DNA of 64,000 bases, from contig CAWGSK010000003.1 in assembly GCA_963825055.1 (NCBI GenBank), positions 1 to 64,000 on the forward strand, written 5' to 3'. Within the stretch, counting starts at the first letter, position 1, and each line of letters starts with the position of its first letter. The notes under the pieces were generated by a model. The model saw only the letters and a list, made by a program, of their open reading frames with translations. It ran no database searches and was not told where the DNA came from. The position numbers and the translations under genes are program-made. This stretch comes from an uncultured Gemmatimonadales bacterium (GTDB lineage: Bacteria > Gemmatimonadota > Gemmatimonadetes > Gemmatimonadales > GWC2-71-9). Shown piece by piece: positions 8,467-26,753 of the stretch.

Positions 8467-8552
8467 GAGGTCGAGGAGTCGAGAAATCGCGGGTCGAAAG
8501 CACCGTTGTACGCTAAGCACTCGACCTCTCGACTTCTCGACTTCTCGACCTC
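8467..8552. repeat. Inverted arms built of ~8-mer (GTCGAGAA-like) tandem repeats
   Basis: Left arm gaggtcgaggagtcgagaaatcgcgggtcga matches the reverse complement of right arm ctcgacctctcgacttctcgacttctcgacctc. Confidence 0.8.
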
Positions 8553-11500
8553 CGTGACACCACCAGCAACGGCACCACGAACAGCGCCCCGAGCGTCCCG
8601 GCCAGGGTGCCACCCACTGTGGCCAGGGCGATCGAGCCGAACAACTCGTCCGCGTCAGCCCCGATGGCAAGAGGCAGGAGGCTGGCGAGTGTCGTGAGAG
8701 TAACCAGGACGACCATGCCCGCGCGGTCACGGCAGGCGGCAACGACCCCGAGTCCGGAGACGCGGGGGCGGCCACCCTCCGCTTTCGCCCGCCGGCGCCG
8801 TTCCAGCGCCGCATCGATCACCAGAATCGCCTGGTTGACGGCGAGGCCCACCACCAGGATCACCCCGACCGCGGCCTCCCGGCTGAACGCCGTGCCGGAG
8901 GCCCAGAAAGCGGCTGCGGACCCCGCCAGCGCCACCGGCAGGCTCAGGAAGACGGCGGCGCTCGCCCAGGACGAGTCGAACACCATGGCGACCGACAGCA
9001 GGACCAGGATGATCCCGAGCGCGAACACGAGCCACAGGCCCTTCCCGCTCTCGTCCGTCTCCCAGGCGAAGACGTCATCCGACACGGAATAGCCCGGCGG
9101 TACACTGATCGACTCCATGAAGGCATCATGGGTACGGTTGGCGAGCTTCTGCGGGCCCCGGAACTCGTAGCTCACGATCCGGACGTACTGCTGGTCCTCC
9201 CGGTTGATCCGGGAGAGCGCTTCCTCCTCGTCCACCCGGGCCAGGTCACGGATGCGGGCCGGGCTTTCACTGGACGTCGGCACGATGGCGTCCCGGAGCT
9301 GTTCGAGGGTCCGCTCCCTTGCTCCGGCCGCCTTCAGGCTGACACCGACTTCTTCGCCGCCCAGCTCGATCATCGTCCGCCCCACCGCGCCACGCACTTC
9401 CCGCGAGACGGCGCCGGCCAGGTCGGCCGCGGTGACGCCGAATCGCGACATCGCCGCGCGATCGGGATCGAGGGTGACGGTGAAGGCCTTCTCGTCACCG
9501 AAGAAACTGGCCGCGTTGGCATTGACGTCCCGGACGCGCGGGATCTGCTCCAGCCGCCGCTTGATGTCGAACGCCATTCGTTCAACGCCGCCGAACGAGT
9601 ACCCGAGCACCTTGATCCGGAACCGCGAGCTGCCACCACCACCCCCCGAATAGAATCCCGGACCCTGCCCTGACACGCTGATACTGGCGCCGCCTACCAG
9701 TACCGCGCGCTGGGTCAGCGCCTCCTGCATCTCGAACGGGATCGGGCCGAACTCCTCTTCGCGCGTGAACACGACCCGCATGGACGCGCCGCTCGGCGAC
9801 CCCTGGGTGACCACCTGCTCCACGCCGGGCTGCCCCACCACGATCTGCTCGAATTCGCGCATCGCCACATCCAGGCTCGCGGGATCCGACCCGCGGGGAA
9901 AGCGGAGCCAGGCCTGAAGCGTGGTCCGCTGCCCGAACCAGTTCCCGAACGAACTGCGCGGCACCTTGGTCGCGAAGGCCCAGCCCAGGTAGCCGAGTCC
10001 GGCGGCCACGATGAGCAGCACCGGGTACCGTACCTTGAGCAGCAGCACGAGGCTCTTCCCGTAGATCCGGCTCATCTTCGGCCAGTGCCCTCGGCGAAGG
10101 CCGTGCCCGGCGCCGAGGGCCGGGATCATCACCAGCGCCGAGATGACCGACCATCCCAGCGCGAGGGCAAACGCGACCGCAAACGGCACGAATTCCGTCC
10201 GCGCGTTGCCCTGGAGATAAAGGAAGGGGAAGAGCACCACCGCTGTCGTGAGCGTGGCGCCGATGACGGCGGGCATGATCCGCCGGCCCGCCGCTGCCCG
10301 CCCGTCCGGCGTGTCCGGCGCGGTCCTGAGCCGGTCCACCACCACCAGTCCGTTCTGCACCAGGATGCCGACACCCATCCCGAGACCGGCCAGCGTGAGC
10401 AGATTGGCCGGAATCTTCAGCAGATAAAGCCCCAGCGCCGTTCCGGCGATCGCCACGGCCGCGCTCCCCATCACCAGGCCGACGCTCTTCACGTTCCGGA
10501 GCGCCAGGGCCAGGACGATGAGCACGGAGAGGAAGGCGATGCCGCCGCGCAGCAGCAGGTTGTTCAACTGTTTCCGGAGCTCGACGCTCTCGTCGCTCTC
10601 CAGCCGCACGCGGATCCCCGGTGGCAGCCGCCGGCCGATCCCCGTCATCGCTGCGCGCACCCGGGCCGCCGTCCGGATGGCGTCGGCACCCGGGAGCCGG
10701 GCGATCTCCATGCTCACCGCCGGTTCGCCATTCACCCGGTAAAACCGGTCGCGCGAGTCCTCCTCCAGCCGCACATCGGCCAGGTCACCCAGGCGAAAGA
10801 TCCGCCCGCCCGGCGCCGTGACCGGCAGCTCCGCCAGGTCCGCCGCGACATCGGGCTGGTCGCGCAGCACCACCGGGCGCTGGCTGACGCCGGCCCGCTC
10901 GACGCCCAGCGAGCGCACCACCCGTGCATTCGAGAGCGCCTGGCTCAGGGTCGCGGGCGAGATGCCAAGCTGCCGGAGCCGCTGGTCGTCATACGTGACC
11001 GAGATGCCGCGCTCGGCTCCGCCCCCGCTGTTGACACCCGCCACGCCCTCGATGGCAGAGAGCTGCGGGACGATCTCGTCGGCGGAAAGCTTCGCGAGCG
11101 TGCCCGCCGTGTACGGACCGTACACCGTGTACAGGAGAAGCGGTTGCTCCTCCAGGTCCTGCGGGACGTAGTTGCTCACGCGCGGGATCGACGCGCCCTG
11201 CGGAAAATCCTTGCGGAGGATCTCGATCCGCTCGAGGATGGCCAGTCGGGTCAGCTGGACGTCGGCATCGGGCTCCAGGTCCACGGTGAGCCGGGCGTCG
11301 CCGTCACTGGACTCGCTGCTGATCTTCCGGACATCCCGCACACCCTGGATGGCGGACTCGAGGGGCGAGGTGATATACGACTCGAGCAGCTCCGCGGAGG
11401 CGCCGGGCCAGGTGGACGACACGACCAGGCGCGGCAGCTCCACCACCGTCCGCGTCGCGAGCGGCAGGCGGAGGAACGCCAGCACTCCCGCACAGATGAG

Positions 11501-11554
11501 CGCCGCGCTCGCCGCCCACACGACGGCCGGCCGCCTGGTGGCCCAGCCGATCAT
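8513..11554 (-). CDS. RND efflux permease (AcrB/MdtB-like), second subunit
   Basis: 1013 aa with typical RND layout (RRP N-terminus, large periplasmic loops, 12 TM pattern). Confidence 0.92.
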   Translation of the reverse strand: MIGWATRRPAVVWAASAALICAGVLAFLRLPLATRTVVELPRLVVSSTWPGASAELLESYITSPLESAIQGVRDVRKISSESSDGDARLTVDLEPDADVQLTRLAILERIEILRKDFPQGASIPRVSNYVPQDLEEQPLLLYTVYGPYTAGTLAKLSADEIVPQLSAIEGVAGVNSGGGAERGISVTYDDQRLRQLGISPATLSQALSNARVVRSLGVERAGVSQRPVVLRDQPDVAADLAELPVTAPGGRIFRLGDLADVRLEEDSRDRFYRVNGEPAVSMEIARLPGADAIRTAARVRAAMTGIGRRLPPGIRVRLESDESVELRKQLNNLLLRGGIAFLSVLIVLALALRNVKSVGLVMGSAAVAIAGTALGLYLLKIPANLLTLAGLGMGVGILVQNGLVVVDRLRTAPDTPDGRAAAGRRIMPAVIGATLTTAVVLFPFLYLQGNARTEFVPFAVAFALALGWSVISALVMIPALGAGHGLRRGHWPKMSRIYGKSLVLLLKVRYPVLLIVAAGLGYLGWAFATKVPRSSFGNWFGQRTTLQAWLRFPRGSDPASLDVAMREFEQIVVGQPGVEQVVTQGSPSGASMRVVFTREEEFGPIPFEMQEALTQRAVLVGGASISVSGQGPGFYSGGGGGSSRFRIKVLGYSFGGVERMAFDIKRRLEQIPRVRDVNANAASFFGDEKAFTVTLDPDRAAMSRFGVTAADLAGAVSREVRGAVGRTMIELGGEEVGVSLKAAGARERTLEQLRDAIVPTSSESPARIRDLARVDEEEALSRINREDQQYVRIVSYEFRGPQKLANRTHDAFMESISVPPGYSVSDDVFAWETDESGKGLWLVFALGIILVLLSVAMVFDSSWASAAVFLSLPVALAGSAAAFWASGTAFSREAAVGVILVVGLAVNQAILVIDAALERRRRAKAEGGRPRVSGLGVVAACRDRAGMVVLVTLTTLASLLPLAIGADADELFGSIALATVGGTLAGTLGALFVVPLLVVSRRSRSREVERSSA

Positions 11555-14500
11555 CCCGCCCCTCCGTGTTCCTCGACGGGGATGCCGACCGGCACCGATT
11601 GCGCCCGCCGAAGCTTCCGCCGCTCCATCAGCACGTAGGCGGCCGGCAGCAGGAAGAACGTCACCAGCGTGGCCGTCACCGCGCCACCGATCACCCCGGC
11701 AGCGAGGGGCTGGTAGAGGGCGCCGCCGCTGCCCAGGCCCAGCATCAGCGGCAGGACGCCGGCGATGGTAGTGAGCGAGGTCATGACGATCGGCCGAAGC
11801 CGCTGGAGCCCGCCGGCCAGAATCGCTTTTTCGAGCGGCATGCCCGCTTCCCGGAAGCGCCTGATGGCATCCAGCTTCACCACGGCGTCATTGTCCGCCA
11901 CGCCGATCATCACCACCAGGCCGATCAGGGCCACGGCGTTGATGCTTTGTCCTGTCACCCAGAGGAGCAGGATGCCGCCGGCCGCCGCGAGCGGAACGGT
12001 GAGCATGACCACGATCGGTGTCGTGAACGAGGCGAACTCGCCGGCCAGCACGAGGAACACGAGCGAGATGGAAAGAATCGCCACCACGCCCAGCTCGCCC
12101 GCCGTGCGCCGCTGCTCGATGTCGGCGCCGGTCAGGATCCAGGTGAGGCCGGGTGGCGCATCAATCGAGGCGAGCGCGTGCTCCACGTCCCCGGTGGCTT
12201 TCGCGGTTCCGCCGCGCTCCACTACCCCCTCCACGATGGACACGGGCCGCTGGTTCACCCGGACGACCTCGATCGGTGCCCGGGTCTGCTGCACTTTCAC
12301 CAGCTGTCGGAGCGGCACCCCGCCGACCACGGACGAGAGGGCGGCATCCAGGTCCTCATTGGCGCCGCCGCCCAGCCGGACGGTGATGGGGGTCCGGCGG
12401 TCGGTCTCCCGGAACTCCGTCGCTTCGACGCCGCCGAGTCCGCCGGCCAATGCCCCCGCCACCTGCTCGACCGACAGCCCGCGCTCCGCGATGCGACGGC
12501 GCTCCAGCGTGACCTGGACGATCTCCTGGGTTCCGCTGTAGGCGTCCCGCACATCCGTCAGGCTGGGGAGCTGCTGGAGCACCCGACGCACCGAGTCGGC
12601 ATAGCGGTCCGCGGCGTCCTGCTTGAGGGCGCTCACCTCCACCCGGACAATGCGCCCTTCCCGGCCGATCAGGCTGCCGAACTCCGACTGGCCGGCCAGG
12701 TCCAGCGCGAGCCTGCCCTGCGCCAGGTCGGGCACGGCGGCTCGGAGTTTCTCCGCAAAGTCGGCCGCGTCCATTCCGTCCGGCACCGGAATCACCATCT
12801 GCGCGCCACTCGGGCTTCCGGGGTCGGCGCCGGCCAGGACTTCCTCGTCCGTCGCGACGCCGACCCGACTGTAGACGTCGGTCGCACCGAGCTGGCGGGC
12901 GGCGGCCTCGAGCCGTCCCGCCTGCCGCCGGGTTTCCTCGATGGCGGTGCCCTCCTCCAGCTGGAGCTCGGCCACCACCGTGCCCTCGTCCACCTGCGGC
13001 AGGATTTCCCGCGGCATGTTCACCGCCACCGCCGCCGTGAGTATCACGATCACCGCGGAGATCCCGATCACCCGCCACGGGTGGGCGAGCGACCAGATCA
13101 TTCCGTGCTCGTACCACTCCGTGAATCGGGCGCCGAAGCGGCCCAGCGGCGCGTAGATCCACTCCAGACGGGAGGAGGTCGGCGCGGGCAGGGCGACCCG
13201 GTTCCGACGGGCGGCCAGCATCACCGGCATCAGCGTCAGCGCCAGGATGAGTGACGCGCCCACCGACGTCACCACGCTCAGGCTCAGGTCACGGAAAAGG
13301 GCGGCGGCGAGGCCACGCACGAAGACGATCGGCCCGAACACCAGGAGCGTCGTGAGGGTACCCGCGATGAGCGGCCCGGCCACCTCTTCGGAGGCCTGGA
13401 GCGCTGCCGGCCGCGGTGCCATGCCCTCGTCCCGCAATCGCGCCGAGGCCTCCGACACCACGATCGCGTTATCCACCAGCATGCCGACGCCCAGCGCCAG
13501 CCCGCCCAGCGACAGTACGTTGATCGAGACGTCCAGCAGCTGGAGGAGCACCAGCGCCACCATCACCGACAGCGGGATCACCAGCGCGATCGCCAGGCTG
13601 CTCCGGAGATCCTTCAGGAACAGCATCATGATCAGGATCGCGAGGAAGCCGCCGACCACGATCTCCTGCTCCAGGTTGCCGAGCGCGTCCTCCACGAAGC
13701 GCGCCTGGGCGGCAACCACCGTCAGGTGGATGTCGGGAAATTCGGTCGTGAGCGTCCCGATCGCCTCGGTGATCTTGCGCGTGACCGCGACCGTGTTCGA
13801 GCCGGCATCCTTGTAGATCACGAGCCCCACCGCGGGGCGGCCATCCAGCTGCACCAGCGTCCGCGGGTCGGCCAGGCCCAGGTGTGCGGTGCCGATGTCC
13901 TCCAGCCGGACCGTGCCCCCCGGCGTGAGCGGCGTGCGGCCGATCTCCTCGAGCGAGCGGAACTCGGTCAGCGCCCGGACGCTGAACCGGAATTGCCCGC
14001 GGCGGATGGTGCCGCCCGGCGCACTCCAGTTGGCCTGACGGAGCGCATCGGCGACAGCGCTGGTGGTCAGGTTCAGGGCGCGGAGCCGGTCCGGGTCCAG
14101 GTCCACCCGGATCTCATCTTCCGGGGCGCCCACCACCGCGACGCTGGCCACGCCGTCCAGCTGTTCCAGCCGGCGCGCGTGCACCTCGCGCGCCGTCTGC
14201 GCGATGGAGCGCAGGTCACCGGGGCCGGTGAGCCCCAGCATCGCGATCGGGCGTTCGCCCGGGTCGCTGGTAAGCAGTGTCGGGCGCTCGGCGTTTTCCG
14301 GCAGCCGGCTCCGGGCGTTGTCGAGCCGTTCGCGCACGTTGAGCACGGTGGACGGCATGTCCGTCCCCCACGCGAAGCGCGCGGTGGTCGTGACCTCCTC
14401 GTTCCGGCTCACCGACCGGAGTTCGACCAGCCCGGGCGTGGCGGCGATGGATTCCTCGATGGGTTCCGCCACCAGCCGGGACACTTCCTCGGCCGCGGCG

Positions 14501-14658
14501 CCCGGGTAGGCGGTGCGGATCGTGAGGACGGGGAGCGTGACATCGGGAAGGAGGGCGACGGGGAGGCGGGAGAACGAAACCGCGCCCACCAGCACGAAGG
14601 CCAGCACGGTGGCGATGGTCGTGACCGGCCGCCGGATGGATGAACTGCTCAGCGACAT
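11551..14658 (-). CDS. RND efflux permease (AcrB/MdtB-like), first subunit
   Basis: IRRPVTT, GMLVDNAIVV and RLRPIVMTSLTT motifs. Start at ATG 14658. Confidence 0.93.
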   Translation of the reverse strand: MSLSSSSIRRPVTTIATVLAFVLVGAVSFSRLPVALLPDVTLPVLTIRTAYPGAAAEEVSRLVAEPIEESIAATPGLVELRSVSRNEEVTTTARFAWGTDMPSTVLNVRERLDNARSRLPENAERPTLLTSDPGERPIAMLGLTGPGDLRSIAQTAREVHARRLEQLDGVASVAVVGAPEDEIRVDLDPDRLRALNLTTSAVADALRQANWSAPGGTIRRGQFRFSVRALTEFRSLEEIGRTPLTPGGTVRLEDIGTAHLGLADPRTLVQLDGRPAVGLVIYKDAGSNTVAVTRKITEAIGTLTTEFPDIHLTVVAAQARFVEDALGNLEQEIVVGGFLAILIMMLFLKDLRSSLAIALVIPLSVMVALVLLQLLDVSINVLSLGGLALGVGMLVDNAIVVSEASARLRDEGMAPRPAALQASEEVAGPLIAGTLTTLLVFGPIVFVRGLAAALFRDLSLSVVTSVGASLILALTLMPVMLAARRNRVALPAPTSSRLEWIYAPLGRFGARFTEWYEHGMIWSLAHPWRVIGISAVIVILTAAVAVNMPREILPQVDEGTVVAELQLEEGTAIEETRRQAGRLEAAARQLGATDVYSRVGVATDEEVLAGADPGSPSGAQMVIPVPDGMDAADFAEKLRAAVPDLAQGRLALDLAGQSEFGSLIGREGRIVRVEVSALKQDAADRYADSVRRVLQQLPSLTDVRDAYSGTQEIVQVTLERRRIAERGLSVEQVAGALAGGLGGVEATEFRETDRRTPITVRLGGGANEDLDAALSSVVGGVPLRQLVKVQQTRAPIEVVRVNQRPVSIVEGVVERGGTAKATGDVEHALASIDAPPGLTWILTGADIEQRRTAGELGVVAILSISLVFLVLAGEFASFTTPIVVMLTVPLAAAGGILLLWVTGQSINAVALIGLVVMIGVADNDAVVKLDAIRRFREAGMPLEKAILAGGLQRLRPIVMTSLTTIAGVLPLMLGLGSGGALYQPLAAGVIGGAVTATLVTFFLLPAAYVLMERRKLRRAQSVPVGIPVEEHGGAG

Positions 14659-14665: not shown

Positions 14666-15793
14666 TCAGTCGCGCGCGGCAGGCGTTTCGCGCATTGACG
14701 ACACCCTGACCGGCGCGTCATGCGTGAGCGTCAGGTGCCCCTCGACCAGAACCGTATCACCGGCCGCGACGGGGATTTGCCCGCTCACCGAGTCGGGCAG
14801 CACCTCCGTCTCGCTCCCGTTCGAGAGCCCGGGATTGATATAGACCCACTGGGCCCGGCCGCTCTTCACCACGAACACCAGCGGCCGGCCGTCCCGCTCG
14901 ATAACAGAGCGGGCCGGCACCAGCATCCGGTCATCCAGCCGGCGCGCCTCGAGCCGCACGTCGGCATACATCCCGGGTCGGAGCACGCCGTTGTTCCGGG
15001 CCCGCACCAGCGCCCGGCCCGCGCGGCGGGTTGTATCGATCATCGGCAGGACGGCGGTCACCGTGCCCGTCACCGGCTTGTCCGGCGCCGCGGCCGCGGT
15101 GATGATCGCCTGCCCGCCCACCCTGATGAGCGGCAGGTCGTGCTCCAGCACCTGCGCCTCGATCCGCAGGTTGTTCATGTCCACGATGCTCGCCACGTCC
15201 TGGCCCGCGCTCACCCGCTCGCCAGCCGCGACGTTCACCTCGTTGATCACCCCGTTGAACGGCGCGGTGATCGTGGCGCGCTCCTGGTCCAGCTTCGCCT
15301 TCTCCAGTCTTACCCGTGCGCCCGACAGTCCGGCCCGGGTCTCCGCAATCTCGATCCGCTCCGGGGGGAGCGCCTTGCCGGTGACGATGCTGTCCGGGAT
15401 CACCTGGTCCCGGAAACGCACCATCGCCTCGTCCACCGCCGCCTGGGCCTCCTGCACAGCCAGGTCGAACGGGCGCGGGTCCAACTGCACCAGCGGCTGG
15501 CCCTTCGACACCCGGCTCCCGGGCCGGACCAGCACTTCCTGCACCGTCCCGCTGGTCTCGGCCTTGAGGTCGGCCATGGCCTCGGACTCCACCTGGCCAG
15601 TCGTGGTGACCGACAGGACCAGGTCTCCCCGGCGGGCGACTTCGCCCACCACGGGCAGGGTCATCGAACTGCCGGAATCGCGCGCCTCGGTCCCGTCGCC
15701 GTCATCGGCCGCGGCGGGTTTGTCCTTACAGCCCGGGAGGGCCAGGACGATCAGTATGGAAGGGAGCAGGATGGAACGGAGCCGCAGGGCCAT
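14666..15793 (-). CDS. RND periplasmic adaptor (membrane fusion protein), lipoprotein
   Basis: Signal with LPGC lipobox, lipoyl-like ITAPFNGVI and LRPGM motifs. Start at ATG 15793. Confidence 0.92.
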   Translation of the reverse strand: MALRLRSILLPSILIVLALPGCKDKPAAADDGDGTEARDSGSSMTLPVVGEVARRGDLVLSVTTTGQVESEAMADLKAETSGTVQEVLVRPGSRVSKGQPLVQLDPRPFDLAVQEAQAAVDEAMVRFRDQVIPDSIVTGKALPPERIEIAETRAGLSGARVRLEKAKLDQERATITAPFNGVINEVNVAAGERVSAGQDVASIVDMNNLRIEAQVLEHDLPLIRVGGQAIITAAAAPDKPVTGTVTAVLPMIDTTRRAGRALVRARNNGVLRPGMYADVRLEARRLDDRMLVPARSVIERDGRPLVFVVKSGRAQWVYINPGLSNGSETEVLPDSVSGQIPVAAGDTVLVEGHLTLTHDAPVRVSSMRETPAARD

Positions 15794-15932
15794 GCCGGGT
15801 GCCTCCCGTGGGGGTGCCTCCGGCTCCGGGTAGAGCCGAGGCAAGGGGACAGGGAGTCTAGTGTGCAGTCTGGGGCCGCTGCCCGCAAGGCGGCTGGGGG
15901 ATGGATGCCGGGAGGGGCTGGATGGTTGCGTG
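15772..15932 (-). repeat. Repeat copy R1: MFP promoter and 5' end
   Basis: Clearly similar to 18509-18659; exact 20-mer acagggagtctagtgtgcag shared. Confidence 0.9.
15860..15888 (-). promoter_or_regulatory. Putative sigma70-type promoter of the MFP-RND operon
   Basis: Minus strand TTGCGG-N17-CACACT (overlapping TAGACT), conserved in copy R2. Confidence 0.5.
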
Positions 15933-15944
15933 TGGCCTGGCTGG

Positions 15945-17111
15945 TCAGGGAGCGACCGAGTCGCGGGGTGCGGGAGAATCAGCATCTCGACCGTTGGCTT
16001 CTACTATCCGGTAAAGCTGCAACTCGGCATCGTAGTCCCCACCATCCTCCACGGTGCACATTAGTGCAAGCCAGTGCCCGTTGAGGGAGACACTCCCCCG
16101 CGGTTGCAGGCACGGAATCATGATCCGCGTAAGGAATGTGGTGTCCGCGAACACGTCCGCAAAGGTCGAATCGTTCGACTCCCCCACAACCCAAAGTCGG
16201 CCACGTTCGTCGAACCCCAGGCCGTGCCGGTAAAAGTGGGGTAGTGGCGTAGACTTGAGAGAGTCAAGCCGAGCCTCAAGCCCGGTGATGGCGACGGCTC
16301 CGTTAGGGCCCTTGAAACCACCCTTCATCAGGGATCTGATGCGCTCGCTATCCCGTTCCAACTCCCTGGCCGTGCGACGCCGTGGCTCGAGATCACGGCC
16401 GAATTCCCGCCTGAGACTGCCATCCGCGCCGTAGTATCGAATGGCATACTGCATGGGATCCGCGATAGCGAGAAGACCCCCGGAGGTCGCGTAAGGAGGA
16501 ATGTCCTGCCCTGCCATCCGATTGCCGGATGTCACCGTCTGCAGGAAGGAGTCCGAGCTGGTGAGGAGTACGCGGCTCCCGGCGTGGTCCCCGGGTCCTC
16601 GACGCAGCTCCGCCCGCCCTCCCCCGACTCGATTCATCCAGTCCAGAGAGTCAGGTGAAATGCCAACAAGTCGGAACTCAACTGGAATCCGGAATTCGCT
16701 GGCGACCTTCCCAGCCCGGTCGTAAGTCAGAAGCCTCGCCTGATCCAGGTCAAGAACAATCGCATGACGACCCTGGAAGCGAAGCTCTGAAACATTGACG
16801 AGTTCACCGGGACCATGTCCCCTTCGAGCGAAACGCCGCACCAGCGCACCGGTACTGTCCAGCATGGTCAGCACAGTGTCTTGTTGCTGTCTGGTGTGAC
16901 GGTAAACCGTGTATCCGCCGGATACGGCGATCGGCTGGTTAGGGCTTTCGGGGATCCAGTCTGGCAGGACATCTATCCGGACCCGCTTCAGGCCCGGTGT
17001 TCGGGCATCGGGTTCCACTGCGCGAGTCGTCGGAACTGATCGGGTATCTTCGGCTTTCCCACACCCCGCGACTATGCCAAGGGAAACGAGCAGAATCCAT
17101 CTCGTGAGCAC
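15945..17111 (-). CDS. Beta-propeller (6-bladed/NHL-like) lipoprotein, cassette 1
   Basis: VAGC lipobox, FARRGHGPGEL motif and FDERGRLWV blade. Confidence 0.8.
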   Translation of the reverse strand: MLTRWILLVSLGIVAGCGKAEDTRSVPTTRAVEPDARTPGLKRVRIDVLPDWIPESPNQPIAVSGGYTVYRHTRQQQDTVLTMLDSTGALVRRFARRGHGPGELVNVSELRFQGRHAIVLDLDQARLLTYDRAGKVASEFRIPVEFRLVGISPDSLDWMNRVGGGRAELRRGPGDHAGSRVLLTSSDSFLQTVTSGNRMAGQDIPPYATSGGLLAIADPMQYAIRYYGADGSLRREFGRDLEPRRRTARELERDSERIRSLMKGGFKGPNGAVAITGLEARLDSLKSTPLPHFYRHGLGFDERGRLWVVGESNDSTFADVFADTTFLTRIMIPCLQPRGSVSLNGHWLALMCTVEDGGDYDAELQLYRIVEANGRDADSPAPRDSVAP

Positions 17112-18103: not shown

Positions 18104-18385
18104 TCCCGATTCCGGTCGCTTTAAGCTGGGTCTCACACCGAGGGTGCCCCGCATGTCTCACACTGGCGCTCAGTAACACAAATTGGTGGCGGGCAACATA
18201 ACGTTGGGGGGGGGGGGGCAGCGCAAGCCACCAGTGTTGATAGGATAGGCTGCGAGGTGGCTCTGCAGGTGTATAGACGCGAGCAGAGGCCCCGCAATGG
18301 AGCCGGGTGACTTGACTAGGCTGCGTGTGCACGGAAAGCCCACGTTGCCGCTCGCCTTCTGTTCCTTGCAGCGAGACCACGGCCA

Positions 18386-18659
18386 GGTCTACAACGACCC
18401 GTCCTCCCTGCGGTCTGATCTCGCCGCGGTCGCCCCCTGCTCATGCGGATTTCAACGAAGCCCGTGCTTAAGCCCACCCCGCAGGGGGCCTGCTCGGAAG
18501 CAGGCCAGTGGAACGGAGCCGCAGGGCCATGCCCCCCCGTGGGGGTGCCGCCCCGGGGGTCATCCGGGGAGAGGTACAGGGAGTCTAGTGTGCAGACTGG
18601 GGCCGCGGGCCGCAAGGCGGCTGGAGGATAGATGCTGGGAAGGGCTGGATGGTTGCGTG
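18386..18659 (-). repeat. Repeat copy R2: degenerate MFP promoter/5' remnant plus ~120 bp extension
   Basis: 18509-18659 matches R1 and encodes MALRLRSTGLLPS then a stop; 18386-18424 is 36/39 identical to 20883-20921. Confidence 0.88.
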
Positions 18660-18708
18660 GGGGAGGCGTCCGGAAAGAGCCAGTCATGAGGGATCGTCCA
18701 CCGGCGGC

Positions 18709-19131
18709 TCATGCCGGGGGGGGGGGCGAACACGCCTCGACGAACCGGTCGATGGTCCAGTCGAGACCTTGGTCGCAGAGCTCCCTCCAGCCGAGACCTG
18801 TGAGTCGCTTCGCCATTCTGTAGCGGTAGGCTGGATCCAGGCCCTCCGCCAGAGTCTGGGCGCAGAGTGACCGGCCCTCGTTCTCAGCGGTCTCTACCCA
18901 CCCCAGAAGGGCCATCCAGCCTGCAAGCTCGCGATACGGCGGCAGCCCGTTCCGCTTCAGGTGGTAAGCAAGTTGGTACCTTGATCGGAATCCTGCTTCC
19001 TCCGTCAGCACCTTCAACCGCGGCCGTACTTGCTCGCCGGTATGCAGTGCTCTCACAACCATCCAGCCGCGCTCGGAAACCCAAGTCAAGCGGGTCCGGA
19101 GTCTCGCCAATAACCTTACTTTCCCGCCCAT
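18709..19131 (-). CDS. Stand-alone AraC-like helix-turn-helix protein
   Basis: GGAGAAGG RBS; helical pattern GFRSRYQLAYHLKRNGLPP...YRMAKRLTG resembling an AraC C-terminal domain. Confidence 0.6.
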   Translation of the reverse strand: MGGKVRLLARLRTRLTWVSERGWMVVRALHTGEQVRPRLKVLTEEAGFRSRYQLAYHLKRNGLPPYRELAGWMALLGWVETAENEGRSLCAQTLAEGLDPAYRYRMAKRLTGLGWRELCDQGLDWTIDRFVEACSPPPPA

Positions 19132-19251: not shown

Positions 19252-20361
19252 ATGGCAATGAGTCGAAGGCTCGGAATGGCTAGGGGTGTGCTCCCGATTC
19301 TATTTGCATTGTATGGCCTTGCCTGTGGGGAATCACGTGGACCGGAGCAATCCACGTCCTTAAGCTCACCGAAGCTTGTGTGCGACACATGTAGAATTCA
19401 ATTCCGTTCGGAAGCACTTCTCGGTGAAAATGACGCCAAAGCGCCGATAGTTGCGTTTTCCGAGGCCCGGACGTTCCACCACGGGAATTATCTCGTGGCT
19501 CCCGTCGGGGGCATGGACTACATCGCACTATTTGCTCCCGCAGGTAACGAGGTTGCGGTGATTGGCCGATCCGGAGAGGGGCCCGGCGAATACCGGACCG
19601 TTCAGGACGTGGCCGTTCGATCTGATGATTCAGTAGTTGTTCTCAGCCAGAGACTCACACTCCTCACCCCTGATCTGTCATTTGCTCGCGCGGTGTCCTT
19701 CCCTCGGGGGGTACGCGCATCCCGGCTACTTCCCCTACCAAGTGGGAAGGTTCTTCTCAATAACTACAGCGTGCCTGGTCGTCCGTTCATCGTTCTAGAC
19801 GCGGATTTACGAATGGTACGCCAGGTAGGCGAGGAAACATCAGGGTCCCCCGAGGAGTTGCAGCATGTTTTGGCCAGCGCGGGGAGTGAAGGTTTTTGGA
19901 GCGCCAGAACTAGTGGTCGATATCTCATAGAACATTGGTCGCTTGACGGGAAGCGCATTCGAACCATTCAGCCGAAGTCGGCGTGGTTTGAAGCAGGTGA
20001 GCTTTGGGCAGGTCATGACCCACGGCGCACCCGCCCATCGCCGAGAATCGGCGGCATATGGCTCGATAATGAGCGTCTCTGGGTCATAGGGATTGTTTCA
20101 GATATCGACTGGAAGCCTCAACTCCTCGCGGCAGGAGACCCACACGTAGAAGTGGACGCTCCAATGCCACAGCCTGAGGAATGGCCGAGCTTGTTCGACA
20201 CGATGGTCGAGGTATTGGATTTACGAACCGGTGCGGTCATGAGCACGCGCAGGTATGACGGCGTCCTTATGGGCTTCATGGACGATGGTAAGGCATCGGA
20301 ACTCATTAGTGACGCAGTGGGCCTCAAAATCCGAATAATTTCACTTCACCTTGGCGACTAG
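19252..20361 (+). CDS. Beta-propeller (6-bladed-like) lipoprotein, cassette 2
   Basis: GLAC lipobox and IGRSGEGPGEY motif. Confidence 0.8.
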   Translation: MAMSRRLGMARGVLPILFALYGLACGESRGPEQSTSLSSPKLVCDTCRIQFRSEALLGENDAKAPIVAFSEARTFHHGNYLVAPVGGMDYIALFAPAGNEVAVIGRSGEGPGEYRTVQDVAVRSDDSVVVLSQRLTLLTPDLSFARAVSFPRGVRASRLLPLPSGKVLLNNYSVPGRPFIVLDADLRMVRQVGEETSGSPEELQHVLASAGSEGFWSARTSGRYLIEHWSLDGKRIRTIQPKSAWFEAGELWAGHDPRRTRPSPRIGGIWLDNERLWVIGIVSDIDWKPQLLAAGDPHVEVDAPMPQPEEWPSLFDTMVEVLDLRTGAVMSTRRYDGVLMGFMDDGKASELISDAVGLKIRIISLHLGD

Positions 20362-20384
20362 TTCGCATAGAAAGGAGTTCCATC

Positions 20385-20633
20385 ATGTCACGTATTCGGA
20401 AATTCCCCTGGTACCTTGGCCTAGTTCTAGTGGTACTCTTAGCCTATTCGACAATAGGTGCTCCAAACGCTTCGGGAGAAGAGTCGAATGGGACAAAATG
20501 CAATGAGTTCACCAACTCTCTGGGAACATTCCATTCCTTCGGCGGAGGGGCATGCTACGAGGGGGCTCCAAACAGTGCTCACGCCAACAATCAAGTGGGC
20601 TATTGTCACCAATATCACTATTCCTGTAGCTAG
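20385..20633 (+). CDS. Small secreted Cys-containing peptide (cassette 2)
   Basis: Strong AAAGGAG RBS; basic plus hydrophobic signal; ~50-aa mature part with 4 Cys, ending CS. Confidence 0.8.
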   Translation: MSRIRKFPWYLGLVLVVLLAYSTIGAPNASGEESNGTKCNEFTNSLGTFHSFGGGACYEGAPNSAHANNQVGYCHQYHYSCS

Positions 20634-20882
20634 GGAGTGGTGAGCAGCGACCATGCAAGAGAAGGCGTGCCTCCAGCCCTTTGAAGGCGCGCCCCTCTCC
20701 CTGCAAACTTGACACTCCCGAGGGTCCGGAGAGTGTTTCCGCTGCTCGGACTTGTCATGCCTGGCGGGAACATGCGGAGTCCGGGTACGCACCAAGGATC
20801 ACAGACAACGAGCGAAGGCCCGGACAGCGCTGTTCCAAAGTCCGGGCCTTCGGGCCGTGCCCGCAGGATATGGAACTTGGGG

Positions 20883-21095: not shown

Positions 21096-21197
21096 CGACA
21101 TGGCACAACTCCCAAAGGGGTTCTGCCTGGTTAGATGCGGTGAGGCTGCGAAGGGTTGCATGCGGGGTCGCGGGGTCACGGGGTCGAGGAGTCGAGG

Positions 21198-22012
21198 GTC
21201 ACTTGAGTGACAGTTCGGCCGAGTCGTGGCTTCAGCCACGAAGGTCACGGCGAGGGGACTTGTTCCGTGGGTCTCTTTCGCGGCTGAGAGTCACGACTCG
21301 GCCGAAATGTTGCCTGAGAGCGACGGGATCTCGCCTGGGTGCCGTGTCGCTCACGTCGCAGGTTCCCTCCGGTCACGACTCAGCGAGCCTGGCCCTGACA
21401 GCGACCCGATCTTCAACCATTCACGATCGCCTCTTCCGGGTGCCGCTCCGGCTGCCCCTCCACGTACCGCCGGACGATCTCCAGCGCCCGCCCGCTCACC
21501 GATTCGATGTCATATCCGCGCTCCCACTTGAGGGGCAGATATGCCGGGCAGTGGCCTTCGCGGGACGCCAGTACCGAGCTCCCGCCCTTCAGCCGCTGAA
21601 CCAGCCTTGGAATGCTGGTAAGGGGATGAAGCTGAAGCAGCACATGGACATGCGTCGTCACCATGCCGAGGGCAATGATCCGGGCCCGCTCCTGCCGCGC
21701 AACCGCCGGCAGGAAGCGTCGGAGAAACCCCGCGACGCCGGATGTGATGAGCGGGGCACGGTCGCGGGTGGTCCAGATGAGATGAACATAGAGACGGTGC
21801 CGGATGAGTTGCTCCCGAGGAAGTCGGGAGTCAGTCTCGATGGCCAGGTCGGAAACCATCGCATCGGATTCCCGCGACTCGTACCTTTTTTCGTGGCTAA
21901 AGCCACGACTCGGCCGGTCTGTCACTCAAGTGACGGCGTTTCTCTTATCAGGAGATCGTCATTGCGTCGCTCTCAGCGATAGACCGGCCGAGTCGCGGCT
22001 CTTAGCCGCGAA
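21198..22012. mobile_element. Y1 transposase element flanked by REP-like double-hairpin repeats (REPtron/IS200-like)
   Basis: 45-bp inverted repeats 21198-21242 and 21890-21934 (42/45 identical); further copies at ~21277-21323 and ~21967-22012. Confidence 0.8.
21413..21805 (-). CDS. IS200/IS605 TnpA or RAYT-like HUH (Y1) transposase
   Basis: HLIWTT..R.PLI, HVH (HUH), LKGGSS, WERGY..SVS and catalytic YVEGQ. Best RBS precedes ATC at 21805. Confidence 0.85.
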   Translation of the reverse strand: MRHRLYVHLIWTTRDRAPLITSGVAGFLRRFLPAVARQERARIIALGMVTTHVHVLLQLHPLTSIPRLVQRLKGGSSVLASREGHCPAYLPLKWERGYDIESVSGRALEIVRRYVEGQPERHPEEAIVNG

Positions 22013-22072
22013 AAAGAGCGTGGCCGGCGTCGCCGACCTTGCGCTACCCGCCAGGAGAACTACGCTATCGAG

Positions 22073-23221
22073 ATGGCTTCCATCCCTCGCGCTGCCGCCT
22101 TGTTCCTCACCACTGCGCTGATCTCCCTGTCCTCTGCCTGCTCGAGCGAGCAGGCCCCGGAGGCCGGAGAGTTCACCGGGTCACCCACCGGCCAGGCGAA
22201 GCGGGCCCTGGTTCGCGACCTGGTCATCCCCGGTGAAACCCCAGACTACGCCTTCAGCAGCATCGCCGGCATCGCCGAGAATCCCACAGACGGCCGCCTC
22301 GCCGTCATCGATCGGCAGGACCGCCGCGTATTCATCTTCGACAGCACTGGGACTCTGCTCGCGAAGGTGGGGCGCGAGGGCTCCGGGCCAGGTGAGTTCA
22401 GGTTCCCGATGGATCCCCATTGGACAACCGATACACTGTGGATCGCAGATCCGAACCTCGGCCGGCTGACCCCGATTGTGGATGGCGCTCCAGGGAAGAG
22501 CGTACCTGCTCCGGCTGGTGGGCGCCATCTGCGCATGCTGCACGACGGACGCATCGCCGACGTGCCGTGGAGATCTGGCTTCATCGCCAATATGCCGGAC
22601 ACCCAGCGGCTTGCTGTCACCGTCTATCCGCGCGGGAAGAGCCGGGTGGATACGGTGTTCCAGATGGTTCGCCACCTGCGCAGCCTCGAGATTCCGACCA
22701 CCACGGGCTGGAGCATCGGAGGACAGCCCTTCGAAGACGGCGAGCTGTACGAAATCTGCGAGGATGGTTCCGGAATAGTCATCGTCGACCGCCGAACCGA
22801 CCGGACATCATACGCCGTCACCCGGATCTCCATGGACGGCGACACCGTCTTTGACCGGCACTTCGATTATGACCCGCTACCCCTGACGGACGAACAGGTG
22901 GAGGCTGTCATTACCCGACGGGGAGCGACGGCACCCGGCGGCGAACCGGCCGTCCGGAAAGCCCTGTTCCTCCCACCCCACCTGACTCCGGCTCGCCAGG
23001 TTCTTACCGGCAGCGACGGCACCACCTGGCTGGAGCTGGAGACGGCCGACCCCGACTCAGCGATATGGCAGGCGCTGGATCGGGACGGCAATTCCGTATT
23101 CAGGCTCTCGCTCCCGCGCCGCGAATTCCTCACGGCGGCCGCGCTGGATCACATCTGGACAACCGAATTCGATGAGAATGGTGTGCCGTCGCTGACCCGG
23201 TACCAGTTGAACGGAGGCTGA
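22073..23221 (+). CDS. Beta-propeller (6-bladed) lipoprotein
   Basis: SSAC lipobox, VGREGSGPGEF and GSDGTTW. Confidence 0.85.
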   Translation: MASIPRAAALFLTTALISLSSACSSEQAPEAGEFTGSPTGQAKRALVRDLVIPGETPDYAFSSIAGIAENPTDGRLAVIDRQDRRVFIFDSTGTLLAKVGREGSGPGEFRFPMDPHWTTDTLWIADPNLGRLTPIVDGAPGKSVPAPAGGRHLRMLHDGRIADVPWRSGFIANMPDTQRLAVTVYPRGKSRVDTVFQMVRHLRSLEIPTTTGWSIGGQPFEDGELYEICEDGSGIVIVDRRTDRTSYAVTRISMDGDTVFDRHFDYDPLPLTDEQVEAVITRRGATAPGGEPAVRKALFLPPHLTPARQVLTGSDGTTWLELETADPDSAIWQALDRDGNSVFRLSLPRREFLTAAALDHIWTTEFDENGVPSLTRYQLNGG

Positions 23222-23312: not shown

Positions 23313-23316
23313 ACTG

Positions 23317-24249
23317 TTAGTAGGACTGCAGATCTCTCCCACTCACAACCTTCCCCTCATACCCCGCGCTCTTCACCTCGTTCACCAGGTCCTCGTCCGT
23401 CGCACCCCAGTACAGCTGGTGGTACAGCACCAGCAGCTTCGGCCGGGCCTCTGCGGCCAGCTTCGCCAGCTCGGTCGTCGAGGTATGGAAATCGGCGTGG
23501 TACCGCTGCCACGGCCCGGGAAGCCCCTGGAAGGTCCGTGCGGAGTAGACCTCGTGCACCAGCACGTCGCAGCCGCTGCACGCCTCGGCGATGGCGGCGG
23601 TCGGCGTCTCGTCCCCGGAAATGACGATCACCCGGTCAGGCGTTTTGAAACGGTAGCCCCAGGCCACGGGCCAGCTGCCGTGGTGTACCGGCACCGCGGT
23701 GACGGTCACCAGCGAGTCCTGGTAAACGACACCGGGTGAGGGAATCTCATGGACGTTCGCGCGCCAGCCCTCGGTGTTCTCGCGGGGCTCGAGTCCGTTG
23801 ATCCGGATGTCGATGTCCTCGCTCCAGGCGGCCTCGATGTGGCGGGCCATGGCCTCGATGCCCGGTGGGCCGTACACCTCGAGCGGGCCGGGGCGCTCCA
23901 GCACCCACGGCGTCAGCAGCAGGTCCGGGAGCCCGACCGTGTGATCGGAGTGGAGGTGCGTGATGAAGACCCGATTGAGCCGCGACGGTTCCAGGGCCGG
24001 GATACCGTTCCGCCATGCGGCCGCGGCACGCCGGACAATCCCGGGCCCTGCGTCCACCAGGTATGCGGTCGAATCCACGACTACAGCCACTGCCGGCCCT
24101 GAGCGTTCGGGGTCAGCGTTCGGCGTGCCGGTACCGAGCATGATCACGCGGGTTCGTCCCGGCGGACCTGCCGGCACGGACTGCTCCAGGTCCGACCGAC
24201 TGCATGCCGCCAGGGCCAGGACACTCAGGAGGAGGCGCGACAAGGACAC
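23317..24249 (-). CDS. MBL-fold hydrolase (RNase Z/arylsulfatase-like) with lipoprotein signal
   Basis: LGTG, THLHSDH, SGD, LVHE and HT motifs; LAAC lipobox; GTG start after GGAG. Confidence 0.88.
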   Translation of the reverse strand: MSLSRLLLSVLALAACSRSDLEQSVPAGPPGRTRVIMLGTGTPNADPERSGPAVAVVVDSTAYLVDAGPGIVRRAAAAWRNGIPALEPSRLNRVFITHLHSDHTVGLPDLLLTPWVLERPGPLEVYGPPGIEAMARHIEAAWSEDIDIRINGLEPRENTEGWRANVHEIPSPGVVYQDSLVTVTAVPVHHGSWPVAWGYRFKTPDRVIVISGDETPTAAIAEACSGCDVLVHEVYSARTFQGLPGPWQRYHADFHTSTTELAKLAAEARPKLLVLYHQLYWGATDEDLVNEVKSAGYEGKVVSGRDLQSY

Positions 24250-24280
24250 ATGGTCTCCCTGGTTGAGCTTCGCAACAGCA

Positions 24281-24372: not shown

Positions 24373-25548
24373 TCAAATGCCATCCAGTCGCTCCAGTCCC
24401 ATCGCTTCCCACGCGGTCACCGTAATAGTCCCATCCGTGGAAGTGGACTTCACATAGATGCGGTTCCCCCGGAGGTACGGTGGCACGTCGGGATCCCGAG
24501 CCGGCGCATCCACCGTCGCAACCAGCCTGCCCTGGACCGTGAACAGGTCGAACACAAATCCACCAGGCACGGGCCGCTCGACCCAGATCCTGCCGGCATC
24601 ATCCAGCGTGACCGACCGGAAGGCCGGCCGCGCCTTCGGCCGCTCCTGCCGCCTGGGTTCGCACTCTGCGGGTCCGAGCCGGGCCCGCTCCGCGTTCAGG
24701 GTGTCCTGCGCCGCGGCCCACTCGGCGTCGGTGATCGCGACAGGAGGAACGTCATACGAAATCACCCGGACGCTGTCGCTTCTCGGGTCGCCAATCCGGA
24801 GCAGGTACTCGTCCGTGCGCCCGGTGAGCGGCACGAACGGCGGCACCCACGTCTCTACCCACTGGGGTGCAAAAGGAAAGTCGATGAAGGCAAACCCGCC
24901 GCCGGAAACGGTGCACTCCATGCCGCTCACCAGCTGCGGCCGCTCGGGCAGCGGCACCGTGTCCCGCGCTCCCCCTAGCCCGAACCGCACTCCTACTGGC
25001 AGCAGGCTCCCGTCAGGCCCGGGCAGGCGCCACGGCACCACGACGGACGCACTGTCCAGCGGAGCGAGGCGGATCACCCGGCCGCTGAGTGGCTGCACCG
25101 GCCAGCTGCCCAGCCACTCTCCCCGCGTTCCAAAGAGTTCGATCCGCGCATTGCCCGGGTCGAGCGCCGCCAGGGTGTTGCCGAGCCATGCAAGCGAGTT
25201 CAAGGCGGTGAACTCGGTCGGGCCGTGTCCCTCACGCCCGATGGTCTCCACGAACCGCCCGGTGCTGTCGAACACCAGCACACGCGACACACCTGCGTCG
25301 GCCACGAAGAGCCGTCCGTTCGGCAGGGACGCCAGCGCACGAATGTCTTCCAGCTCGCCAGGGCCGCTCCGGTTAGCGGTGTAGACATGCCGGATCTGGA
25401 ACCTCGGCGCTTCGCCGCTATTGGCGGCCGTAATGATGCTGCCGGTGGTGTCGAACGTCGTCACGACCGTGCCGCGTGGCGGATTCCGCGGATTGTCGCA
25501 GCCGGTGGCCAGGACCAGGCCGGCCGCCAGAACGAGCAAGCGCCTCAC
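24373..25548 (-). CDS. Beta-propeller (6-bladed) lipoprotein
   Basis: ATGC lipobox, IGREGHGPTEF and DDAGRIWV. Confidence 0.85.
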   Translation of the reverse strand: MRRLLVLAAGLVLATGCDNPRNPPRGTVVTTFDTTGSIITAANSGEAPRFQIRHVYTANRSGPGELEDIRALASLPNGRLFVADAGVSRVLVFDSTGRFVETIGREGHGPTEFTALNSLAWLGNTLAALDPGNARIELFGTRGEWLGSWPVQPLSGRVIRLAPLDSASVVVPWRLPGPDGSLLPVGVRFGLGGARDTVPLPERPQLVSGMECTVSGGGFAFIDFPFAPQWVETWVPPFVPLTGRTDEYLLRIGDPRSDSVRVISYDVPPVAITDAEWAAAQDTLNAERARLGPAECEPRRQERPKARPAFRSVTLDDAGRIWVERPVPGGFVFDLFTVQGRLVATVDAPARDPDVPPYLRGNRIYVKSTSTDGTITVTAWEAMGLERLDGI

Positions 25549-26753
25549 TTTGCGGTCGCCGACTGGTCCAGGTGGTACCGGGTCAGGACCGGAAGCCCAT
25601 CAGCATCCTGGCCCAGGCTGTAGAGCCGGCCGTCCGGCCCCCACTGGACGAGGAACGAGCCGAGGGAGGCTGGCACCGGCACTGTGCCAAGGAACACCCG
25701 GGACGAGTCGAATACGTCGAAGGACTCGCCCTGACCCAGGTCGATCCCCCGAAGCCAGATCCGGCCCGCGGGGTCGGCGTAGATGTCCCGCCAGGCCGGC
25801 GCGCTGGTCGGCATGTCACTCTTTTGGAAGGTGCGCCGGAGTTCGGCCGGTTCCATCCGCTGCCCGATCATGGCGACCAGGCCCTCGAAGACGCTGTCAC
25901 GACGGAAGGTGGGAATGGCCGGCGCCGTCCAGGTACGGCCAAACACCCGGAGCGTGTCGCCATCCGGCCCGAGCTCGGTGAGGCGGTACGTATCGCTGTA
26001 GCCCATGACCAGCCCGCCGTCGGGCAGGAATCCGTAATCGGTGGACGGAGACCAGGGGATGTTGAACACGCTCCGCGAACGGCTGGTGCCGCTGGTACGC
26101 TCGATCACCCAGTTGTGCCGGGGGCCGAGCATCGGCAGGTGGAGCGTATCGATGGGAGTGCCGTCGAGGCCGGCTCGCGCGAAGGTGATTGCGATGCTGT
26201 CGGAGGGCGGCTCCTGCACCGGCGTCGCGATCCGCCCCCGTGCATCCACGTGCAGCGGCATCCAGTAACAGCAGCCTGACGGCCAGCTGTCCAGGAACGT
26301 GCCCGCCGTGTCGAAGACACTCGTCCGGGCAGTCTGCGGATCCTGGACGATGAGCAGCGTATCGAATGCGGCGGGAAAGGCCACCTGGAACTCGCCCGGC
26401 CCCTGCCCTTCCCGGCCGATGGTATGCAGGAAGCTGCCGTCGGGGCCATAGACCTTGATGACCGTCGGCTTCGTGTCCACCACGTAGATCCGCCCCGCCG
26501 GGTCCACGGCAAAACCCATGGGCTGCACCAGCTCGCCCGGGCCCCCGGACTCCCCGGACCCGACCTGCAGGTCTTCCACCAGCTTCCACCCGCTCGTGTC
26601 GGCCCAGGCCGTGGGCCCGTGACTCATGATGGAGAGCACTCCGTTCGGCAGGGTATCCCGCACCACCGCGGCGTCGGTGCCCTCTCCCGCTCCGCCACAG
26701 GCCGGCGCGGCGAGGACAGGAAGGAGCAGGGCGAACAGGCGGCGAAACCTCAT
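25545..26753 (-). CDS. Beta-propeller (6-bladed) lipoprotein
   Basis: APAC lipobox-like site, IGREGQGPGEF and DPAGRIW. Start at ATG 26753. Confidence 0.85.
   Translation of the reverse strand: MRFRRLFALLLPVLAAPACGGAGEGTDAAVVRDTLPNGVLSIMSHGPTAWADTSGWKLVEDLQVGSGESGGPGELVQPMGFAVDPAGRIYVVDTKPTVIKVYGPDGSFLHTIGREGQGPGEFQVAFPAAFDTLLIVQDPQTARTSVFDTAGTFLDSWPSGCCYWMPLHVDARGRIATPVQEPPSDSIAITFARAGLDGTPIDTLHLPMLGPRHNWVIERTSGTSRSRSVFNIPWSPSTDYGFLPDGGLVMGYSDTYRLTELGPDGDTLRVFGRTWTAPAIPTFRRDSVFEGLVAMIGQRMEPAELRRTFQKSDMPTSAPAWRDIYADPAGRIWLRGIDLGQGESFDVFDSSRVFLGTVPVPASLGSFLVQWGPDGRLYSLGQDADGLPVLTRYHLDQSATAK

Follow-up and report, generated by a model that had tools for sequence, protein, structure and literature searches.

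In a 64,000-nucleotide stretch of DNA from an uncultured Gemmatimonadales bacterium (hereafter the window; C3:1-64000 of genome G000, which spans 3.5 Mb and is 87% complete), positions 8513..26753 carry a two-permease resistance-nodulation-division (RND) pump with its membrane fusion protein (MFP), preceded by two cassettes that each join a small secreted Cys-rich peptide to a beta-propeller lipoprotein. The gene system is real and widespread: its gene content, the pairing of peptides and propellers at family level, the well-supported link between propellers and pump, and the stacking of cassettes between repeats are laid out below, together with two new families of secreted peptides. Both the system and the peptide families were found to be undescribed, since no account of a peptide-propeller-pump system appeared in the literature searched, which lay mostly outside subscription journals and excluded supplements. 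We tentatively propose, with somewhat less than even confidence, that the propellers may act in the periplasm as adaptors, each specific to its peptides, for export through the pump in two steps. More doubtfully, the whole could constitute a phylum-wide system of peptide secretion and clearance, in which interchangeable propellers, each of which would recognise one family of disulfide mini-proteins, would reprogram an atypical heteromeric RND pump and new specificities would be gained by cassette stacking.

Gene content of the locus

All the genes that the original prediction, made from the letters of the DNA, had listed for 8513..26753 were found with the content, order and strands it described. 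Those of the pump and the two cassettes are as follows.

8513..11554, minus strand: RND permease 2 (ACR_tran, E 2e-126)
11551..14658, minus strand: RND permease 1 (ACR_tran, E 2e-214; aligned to a solved RND pump)
14666..15793, minus strand: MFP, the periplasmic adaptor (above the TIGR01730 cut-off)
15945..17111, minus strand: cassette 1 propeller, NHL-like and presumably six-bladed, predicted lipoprotein (propeller hidden Markov model; invariant N-terminal Cys)
17188..17403, minus strand: cassette 1 peptide, 6 Cys, WWCYNG family (predicted Sec signal and 44-aa acidic mature part)
17546..18103, minus strand: cassette 1 thioredoxin-fold protein, membrane-anchored (CxxC, here CEAC, plus a V-P motif)
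18709..19131, minus strand: AraC-like helix-turn-helix (HTH) protein, divergent from the cassette 2 propeller (Atlas features HTH_18)
19258..20361, plus strand: cassette 2 propeller, predicted lipoprotein, of a clade with N-terminal CxxC
20385..20633, plus strand: cassette 2 peptide, 4 Cys and 3 conserved His (predicted Sec signal and 51-aa acidic mature part)
20813..20852, no strand: 13-bp hairpin between convergent units, a possible terminator (z -3.1)

The HTH protein had no meaningful Pfam match and owes its AraC-type HTH_18 assignment to Atlas clusters; the CxxC protein, also without a meaningful match in Pfam, falls into thioredoxin/redoxin clusters by Atlas features (score 0.97). As had been predicted, no modifying enzyme for ribosomally synthesised peptides is present, in that no maturase (rSAM, YcaO, LanM, MNIO and similar) occurred among the window proteins scanned against Pfam. 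PADLOC returned no match for 9 proteins.

Linkage of the propellers to the pump

The co-occurrence of propellers with this RND clade, which the original prediction had implied, was evident at both locus and genome level. Orthologs of the MFP at 57-70% identity were recovered at 80 genome loci, 79 of them titled Gemmatimonadota or a lower taxon and one Bacillota, and a set of metagenome loci partly overlaps with these. Propellers were detected with a locally built hidden Markov model (HMM), trained on ortholog loci, which finds both cassette propellers. Among loci with at least 12 kb around the MFP ortholog, a propeller was present in 41/46 from genomes and 20/21 from metagenomes, compared with 0/40 loci around paralogous MFPs, an imperfect control because the HMM had been trained on ortholog loci and many of the control genomes hold few propellers; 12/40 of these control loci come from genomes with 6-34 propellers. 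Where at least 2 kb of upstream DNA was available, a propeller lay upstream of the MFP ortholog in 51/60 genome and 45/51 metagenome loci, and in the window's genome none lay within 6 kb of the 8 other MFP matches.

At genome level, with presence of the MFP clade called at a best E of 1e-40 or lower, the median number of propellers was 10 (3-34, n=17) in genomes with the clade versus 1 (0-14, n=42) in those without, 18 of which had zero; with the comparison restricted to genomes of at least 95% completeness, the medians were 14.5 (n=12) and 1.5 (n=24). At most about 33 candidates per genome were scored for these counts, the unpublished G014 was excluded and kin are not independent. Moreover, in distant pumps with an MFP 32-38% identical to that of the window, the propeller gene is embedded in the operon itself, either between the permease genes or directly after permease 1 (L041, L045, L047), with overlapping stop and start codons in L045 and L047.

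The RND pump

Permease 1 has a single Asp in the fourth transmembrane segment (TM4; VDN) and an unusual DN[D/E] in TM10, where the solved pump has DD and KN, and permease 2, with VQ[N/D] and [N/H]Q motifs, is devoid of the TM4/TM10 proton-relay charges. Both patterns hold across 31 aligned orthologs of each permease. Permease 1 is thus predicted to be the energy-coupling subunit and permease 2 a passive or substrate-binding one. The two proteins score 395 and 191 with the CusA/CzcA model TIGR00914, below its cut-off of 701, and hold only 5 conserved Met/His/Cys positions each, with few conserved Met or His; against the NCBIfam models of MdtB and MdtC their best scores are 369 and 322, under cut-offs of 1774 and 1584, and MdtB is among their best solved-structure matches.

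No TolC gene occurs at the window's pump locus; of 160 ortholog loci, 55 have a TolC-like gene upstream of the MFP. The TolC-like gene on contig C30 was rejected as the pump's own partner, as it sits in a MacAB-like operon and is 58-60% identical to two control-locus TolCs versus up to 54% to those of pump operons. Elsewhere, a 32% MFP paralog (L048:2841-8671, genome G013) adjoins an NHLP-type secretion cluster and a Cys peptide with a double-glycine leader, a different system.

Pairing of peptides and propellers

Cognate pairs of peptide and propeller had been postulated, and indeed each of the two peptide families travels with its own propeller lineage. The cassette 2 peptide belongs to a His/Cys family of 63 clusters at 50% identity (profile of five sequences), characterised by a signal peptide and C-x-H-x-F...G-x-C-Y...PN..H...G-x-C...H..C, with C39, F52, C74 and H78 invariant and H50, H66, G72 and C81 nearly so. 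It has no meaningful match in Pfam, NCBIfam or PDB and occurs in 6/400 sampled genomes and in two pump loci. A propeller is directly adjacent in 10/11 other cassettes of this family, a DsbA-like gene intervening in the remaining one, and 9/10 of these propellers rank in the top 14 of 367 by similarity to the window's partner, the tenth ranking 28. The propeller precedes the peptide in 8 of the 11 cassettes and follows it in 3. Furthermore, an N-terminal CxxC is found in 7/9 scorable partner propellers versus 2/168 other propellers. DsbA-like genes adjoin His-family cassettes in relatives; the window's cassette 2 has no thiol oxidoreductase. About a third of the family is 140-177 aa long (P0016, P0019, P0028 and others; L231:1886-2428; L235:9490-9963) and bears an extra conserved C-terminal domain that matches no Pfam family, and the L039 peptide has an N-terminus that looks frameshifted.

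The propeller of cassette 1 belongs to a clade whose profile has NHL propeller structures as its best matches, and itself has matches in 16/300 family genomes. A WWCYNG-like peptide lies beside or within one gene of a cassette 1-type propeller in 8/18 fetched regions, and a ninth such region surfaced with the family HMM. The three closest propellers (38-41% identity) show the same order of thioredoxin (Trx), peptide and propeller, as does G643; in all, 4 other cassettes keep the order, and a fifth (G289), next to the same pump, has it rearranged, with Trx and peptide co-oriented directly before the MFP and the propeller divergent. When 300 genomes were searched with the peptide as the starting point, the nine training members came back along with three weak new matches, one beside a cassette 1-type propeller and two not. 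The 6-Cys family has no meaningful match in Pfam or NCBIfam. For both peptides, word-seeded homolog searches recovered just the peptides themselves, a limit of sensitivity, and the relatives came from other searches.

A strict screen for Cys peptides in general, which undercounts and missed the window's own 4-Cys peptide, gave 32 candidates in 23/170 ortholog loci (2 false, 2 duplicating other loci), 25/32 of them within 1.2 kb of a propeller; in control loci it gave 5 candidates in 4/40, of which 1 is credible. Across 28 pairs, peptide similarity correlated with propeller similarity (rho 0.23, p 2e-4), owing entirely to the His family. The mature peptides are acidic: none of 41 short His-family members carries a net positive charge (median -5), and the median for the other peptides is -3. 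Cys counts are even in 38/41 peptides, as expected for disulfides.

In the window's own genome a screen gave 7 candidates, of which 4 are credible Cys peptides, all at most 700 bp from one of its 18 propellers, and two further peptide-propeller pairs lie on contigs C12 and C17, away from any such pump. The cassette on C12 (L217:6850-8871) encodes a 6-Cys peptide closely resembling the L081 peptide at another genome's pump locus; it lies between large conserved genes that we take, from their translations, to be rpoC-like and rpsL-like. On C17 (L219:5606-7375 and 9550-10599), the third pair is accompanied by another propeller with low GC content at third codon positions (GC3), with no RND pump near. 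Genome G059, with no detected pump ortholog or propeller, has a Cys-peptide gene followed by a broken propeller-like open reading frame (ORF) and a CxxC protein (L238:2510-3895).

The place of the HTH gene in cassette 2, as originally predicted, is borne out in part. It stands divergent from a propeller in 5/29 other HTH loci, with peptide genes between in 3 (among the 29, L325 of the unpublished G697 shows no divergent propeller). Its positions differ in two other genomes, directly before the MFP in G026, matching the arrangement of HTH and junction copy J2 (see below) in the window, and in front of the Trx gene of the trio in G643, so that its target is ambiguous. The HTH family also forms the N-terminal domain of proteins of about 480 aa (L316:475-1917 and about 15 other loci), and one such protein that was scanned has a C-terminal propeller-like region (weak Cytochrom_D1 match).

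Base composition and junction copies

The cassettes had been described as AT-richer, and the line counts behind this (27/60 vs 43/60 GC) were reproduced. GC3 is the better contrast, because whole gyrA has just 0.64 GC; it is 0.51-0.72 for cassette genes, 0.88-0.90 for gyrA, RND and MFP genes, and 0.77-0.86 for three propellers farther along the locus. Across ortholog loci, propellers beside a peptide have a median GC3 of 0.68 (n=15) versus 0.83 (n=232) for the others. Two layers can thus be told apart, one of peptide-less propellers that are long resident, the other of cassettes acquired more recently.

Three diverged copies of the MFP 5' region bound the cassettes.

15772..15935, minus strand: junction copy J1, the first codons of the intact MFP and the DNA upstream of them
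18376..18662, minus strand: junction copy J2, a pseudo 5' end of the MFP whose frame stops after 20 codons
20883..21172, minus strand: junction copy J3, decayed, with a 39-nt block in common with J2 at 92% identity

J1 (15772-15935) and 18509-18662 of J2 are 82% identical over 164 nt, first MFP codons included, and J2 retains the first seven of these. J3 aligns with J2 over about 290 nt (local score 127 vs a shuffle maximum of 52) and gives no significant alignment with J1 (40 vs a shuffle maximum of 77); J2 is therefore like J1 in its upstream half and like J3 in its downstream half. Between the end of cassette 1 and J1 lie just 10 bp. The original claim of bounding copies of the MFP promoter and 5' end thus stands for the 5' end, the promoter being conjectural, with no sigma-70-like site found. 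J2 and J3 were also considered as structured RNA and rejected as such (z -0.5 to -2.0; only two sub-threshold miRNA matches in Rfam). Elsewhere, J2 DNA had just a 34-nt match in 1/100 other genomes. A search of 95 other loci for an MFP-5' copy resembling J2 found none; its 8 matches proved, in the 7 loci inspected, to be propeller paralogs or short repeats.

As anticipated, the content upstream of this MFP varies among the ortholog loci of relatives, and cassettes are stacked at a fixed locus, sitting between diverged direct repeats in the window as well as in other genomes, where inserts of lower GC upstream of the MFP are flanked by such repeats. L156 has a propeller 3' end in three copies, the first two each followed by a peptide cassette; in L082 the bracketing repeats are a propeller pair of 72% identity, and in L083 two regulator fragments. 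We infer that cassettes may have integrated one after another by recombination at a terminal segment that they share, in the window the 5' region of the MFP, J3 probably being the oldest copy. No site-specific recombinase is present, no tRNA integration site was found, and the cassette 2 propeller had no phage match. GTDB and JGI held no close relative (best MFP identity 70%), and strain-level exchange could not be shown.

Contigs from three soil runs of one metagenome study were compared as well; among the sequencing runs listed as containing this DNA, none was of RNA. In soil metagenome X1, possibly the sample of origin, cassette 1 (15788-18246) and cassette 2 (18222-21143) occur as near-identical separate contigs. 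One contig each of X1 and X3 joins 15931 to 20817, bypassing both cassettes, and X3 has identical flank pieces with almost no cover over 16796-20779; the short side of the joint measures 20 letters at 80% likeness and falls on the hairpin, so that a cassette-less allele is not established.

Distal part of the locus

Past the cassettes lie the three more propeller paralogs that had been predicted, along with a transposase and a hydrolase gene that the original prediction had left unmentioned.

21198..22017, minus strand: IS200/RAYT-like transposase (gene 21413-21859) with palindromic flanks
22073..23221, plus strand: propeller, predicted lipoprotein, no adjacent peptide (DUF5128 above cut-off)
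23317..24252, minus strand: metallo-beta-lactamase-fold hydrolase, probably a bystander
24373..25548, minus strand: propeller, predicted lipoprotein, of a conserved peptide-less clade
25545..26753, minus strand: propeller, predicted lipoprotein, of a conserved peptide-less clade (47-member cluster)

With their higher GC3 and no peptide beside them, these three propellers are not cassette genes. All five propellers match DUF5128 (PF17170), the three distal ones above its cut-off of 22.9 and the cassette propellers below it, at 17.8 and 18.1. The palindromic repeats that flank the RAYT-like gene recur on C7, C13, C17, C22 and C28, and RAYT-like genes also adjoin cassettes in L114, L204 and L230.

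Farther on (29138-36846), the window encodes an extracytoplasmic function (ECF) sigma factor, a putative anti-sigma factor, two HEAT-repeat proteins, a DUF5916 protein and a sixth propeller, and a similar ECF/anti-sigma/HEAT block lies upstream of the pump in 4-5 relatives. Intergenic tandem repeats of 7-9 nt, of several motifs, occur at 28878-29061, 32784-32863, 35587-35737, 45297-45409 and 50201-50237. In addition, an ORF on another contig of this genome (C9:269704-272577) joins a propeller to an amidohydrolase-like region, perhaps by fusion or read-through.

Proposed function and alternative readings

A binding adaptor is the simplest single role for the propellers, because they are tied both to peptide families and to the pump, and no invariant His/Cys/Tyr catalytic set was seen across 146 aligned propellers. 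In the mechanism that we propose, the peptide would enter the periplasm by Sec, as its N-terminus predicts, and its disulfides would be formed by the cassette's thioredoxin-fold protein or by the general Dsb system. The cognate propeller lipoprotein would then bind the folded peptide and pass it to the pump, which would carry it over the outer membrane with a TolC encoded elsewhere. The labour may be divided in an MdtB2C-like manner, permease 1 being energised and permease 2 passive, and peptide-less propellers might serve peptides encoded elsewhere or clear foreign ones.

Several observations weigh against this proposal. Cys-peptide candidates turned up in just those 23/170 ortholog loci, and 232/247 full-length propellers near the pump have no detected peptide beside them, both figures being affected by the undercounting of the screen. 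Most cassettes of both peptide families lie away from the pump, with just 2/11 other His-family cassettes and 1/9 regions with a 6-Cys-family peptide at this pump, and 9/18 regions around close homologs of the cassette 1 propeller are without the family peptide. Without the His family, peptide and propeller similarity do not correlate (rho -0.02, p 0.61, 19 pairs). The acidic peptides differ from typical bacteriocins. Some genomes have propellers without the MFP clade, namely G034 (14 propellers, no detected pump ortholog), G001 (10; one of its contigs with propellers holds a partial 40% MFP match) and G006 (7). Moreover, the linkage of pump and propellers can reflect co-inheritance as a block among kin that are not independent, and the pump in the STII precedent is of ABC type, not RND (PMC5985334).

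Alternatively, the cassettes could encode polymorphic toxin/immunity pairs, with narrow-range antibacterial peptides, neutralising propellers, orphan immunity propellers and a pump that is incidental or auxiliary, which we regard as unlikely. Family-level pairing and the low GC3 of peptide-adjacent propellers would suit such pairs, as would arrays of up to 8 peptide-less propellers (L033), which recall the orphan immunity arrays reported in PMC5361080, and the thiol oxidoreductase that bacteroidetocin loci likewise hold according to PMC6671954. However, the mature peptides are acidic, their His, Phe and Cys positions show conservation, not hypervariability, neither a double-glycine leader nor an ABC peptidase is present, and propellers inside the pump operon would go unexplained. 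The likeness to orphan toxin modules, which the original prediction had drawn, was not upheld either, each peptide being a complete, family-conserved ORF with its own signal peptide. Less probable still is peptide signalling, with strain-specific signals, propeller receptors and neighbouring HTH proteins or response regulators, possibly also the atypical RND pair, as relay. The divergent HTH genes (5/29 other loci, 3 with peptide genes between), LuxR-type regulators adjoining other cassettes and the atypical permease proton relay are consistent with it, but the cassettes have no recurring sensor kinase or transmembrane transducer of their own, the regulators belong to several unrelated types, and the HTH position in G026 and G643 leaves its target ambiguous.

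It is also improbable that two separate things are at hand, a pump with resident propellers that handles other substrates, and cassettes that merely integrate at this place via homology to resident propeller genes and to the 5' region of the pump, and whose peptides work in the periplasm and are not cargo. The location of most cassettes elsewhere, the many peptide-less propellers beside the pump, and bracketing repeats that consist, in other genomes, of propeller 3' ends or fragments of regulators favour such a division; yet propeller number per genome tracks pump presence, Trx and peptide in G289 are co-oriented directly before the MFP, and the window's cassette 1 stops just short of J1. Least probable among these readings is periplasmic metal handling, in which the peptides would bind Cu or Zn, propeller and thioredoxin would load or reduce, and the pump would export the metal or its complex. 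To its credit are the three conserved His of the 4-Cys family, the N-terminal CxxC of its partner propellers and the L215 cassette, which adjoins genes that we presume to be of a nos-type copper cluster. Nevertheless, just one of many peptide families is His-rich, the mostly even Cys counts are disulfide-like, and the permeases, with their few conserved Met/His/Cys positions, fall far under the CusA/CzcA cut-off.

The specificity of RND pumps is usually ascribed to the permease pocket. If the adaptor reading is true, exchangeable adaptor proteins that load folded peptides would represent a principle new to efflux, and disulfide mini-proteins would have a new route of secretion. Even if it fails, two secreted peptide families have been defined, along with an RND clade whose proton relay is unusual, and DUF5128 gains a context that constrains its function.

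Comparison with known systems

DUF5128, the model that the propellers of the locus match, comprises six-bladed propellers and is a family without described function; DUF5128, PF17170 and NVEALA had no mention in the literature searched. Thioredoxin fold and six-bladed NHL-type propeller are also combined in NHLRC2/SOQ1, in which the domains are fused, the motif is CC(I/V)NC and there is no conserved operon (PMC6107167), whereas in the window the genes are separate, the motif is CEAC, and a peptide and a pump are present.

The effector-immunity arrays of the Vibrio cholerae type VI secretion system (T6SS) resemble the locus in the successive addition of pairs at a fixed site by recombination, in remnants and in partner-less genes (PMC5361080). 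In contrast to them, the window has no T6SS or known effector domain, and its cassettes are self-contained, with their own signal peptides. Likewise, bacteroidetocin (class IIf bacteriocin) loci hold a small 4-Cys peptide and their own thiol oxidoreductase, but with a double-glycine leader, an ABC peptidase-transporter, a 5-TM protein and no immunity gene, according to a paper in which the word propeller is absent (PMC6671954). The window peptides have hydrophobic, Sec-type N-termini and are accompanied by a propeller and an RND pump, and no such transporter was found among the scanned window proteins.

The window's MFP and its two different permeases are encoded in one operon; MdtABC and MuxABC also combine an MFP with two different permeases that have unequal proton-relay residues, and an asymmetric, MdtB2C-type split has a precedent there (PMC4338810). 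The window's pump differs from them in its TM10 DN[D/E] in place of Lys, in a permease 2 without the TM4 Asp and in its propeller partners.

The passage of a small disulfide peptide is known from E. coli STII, which is exported by Sec, DsbA and MacAB-TolC (PMC5985334). The window system bears no sequence link to STII and no sign of toxicity, and a MacAB-like operon lies on another contig of its genome. The two are alike in the Sec signal and, as predicted for the window, in folding by a periplasmic thiol oxidoreductase and in exit from the periplasm via a tripartite pump; unlike STII, the window has a two-permease RND pump instead of a MacB-type ABC transporter, an oxidoreductase in the cassette and a propeller for each peptide family.

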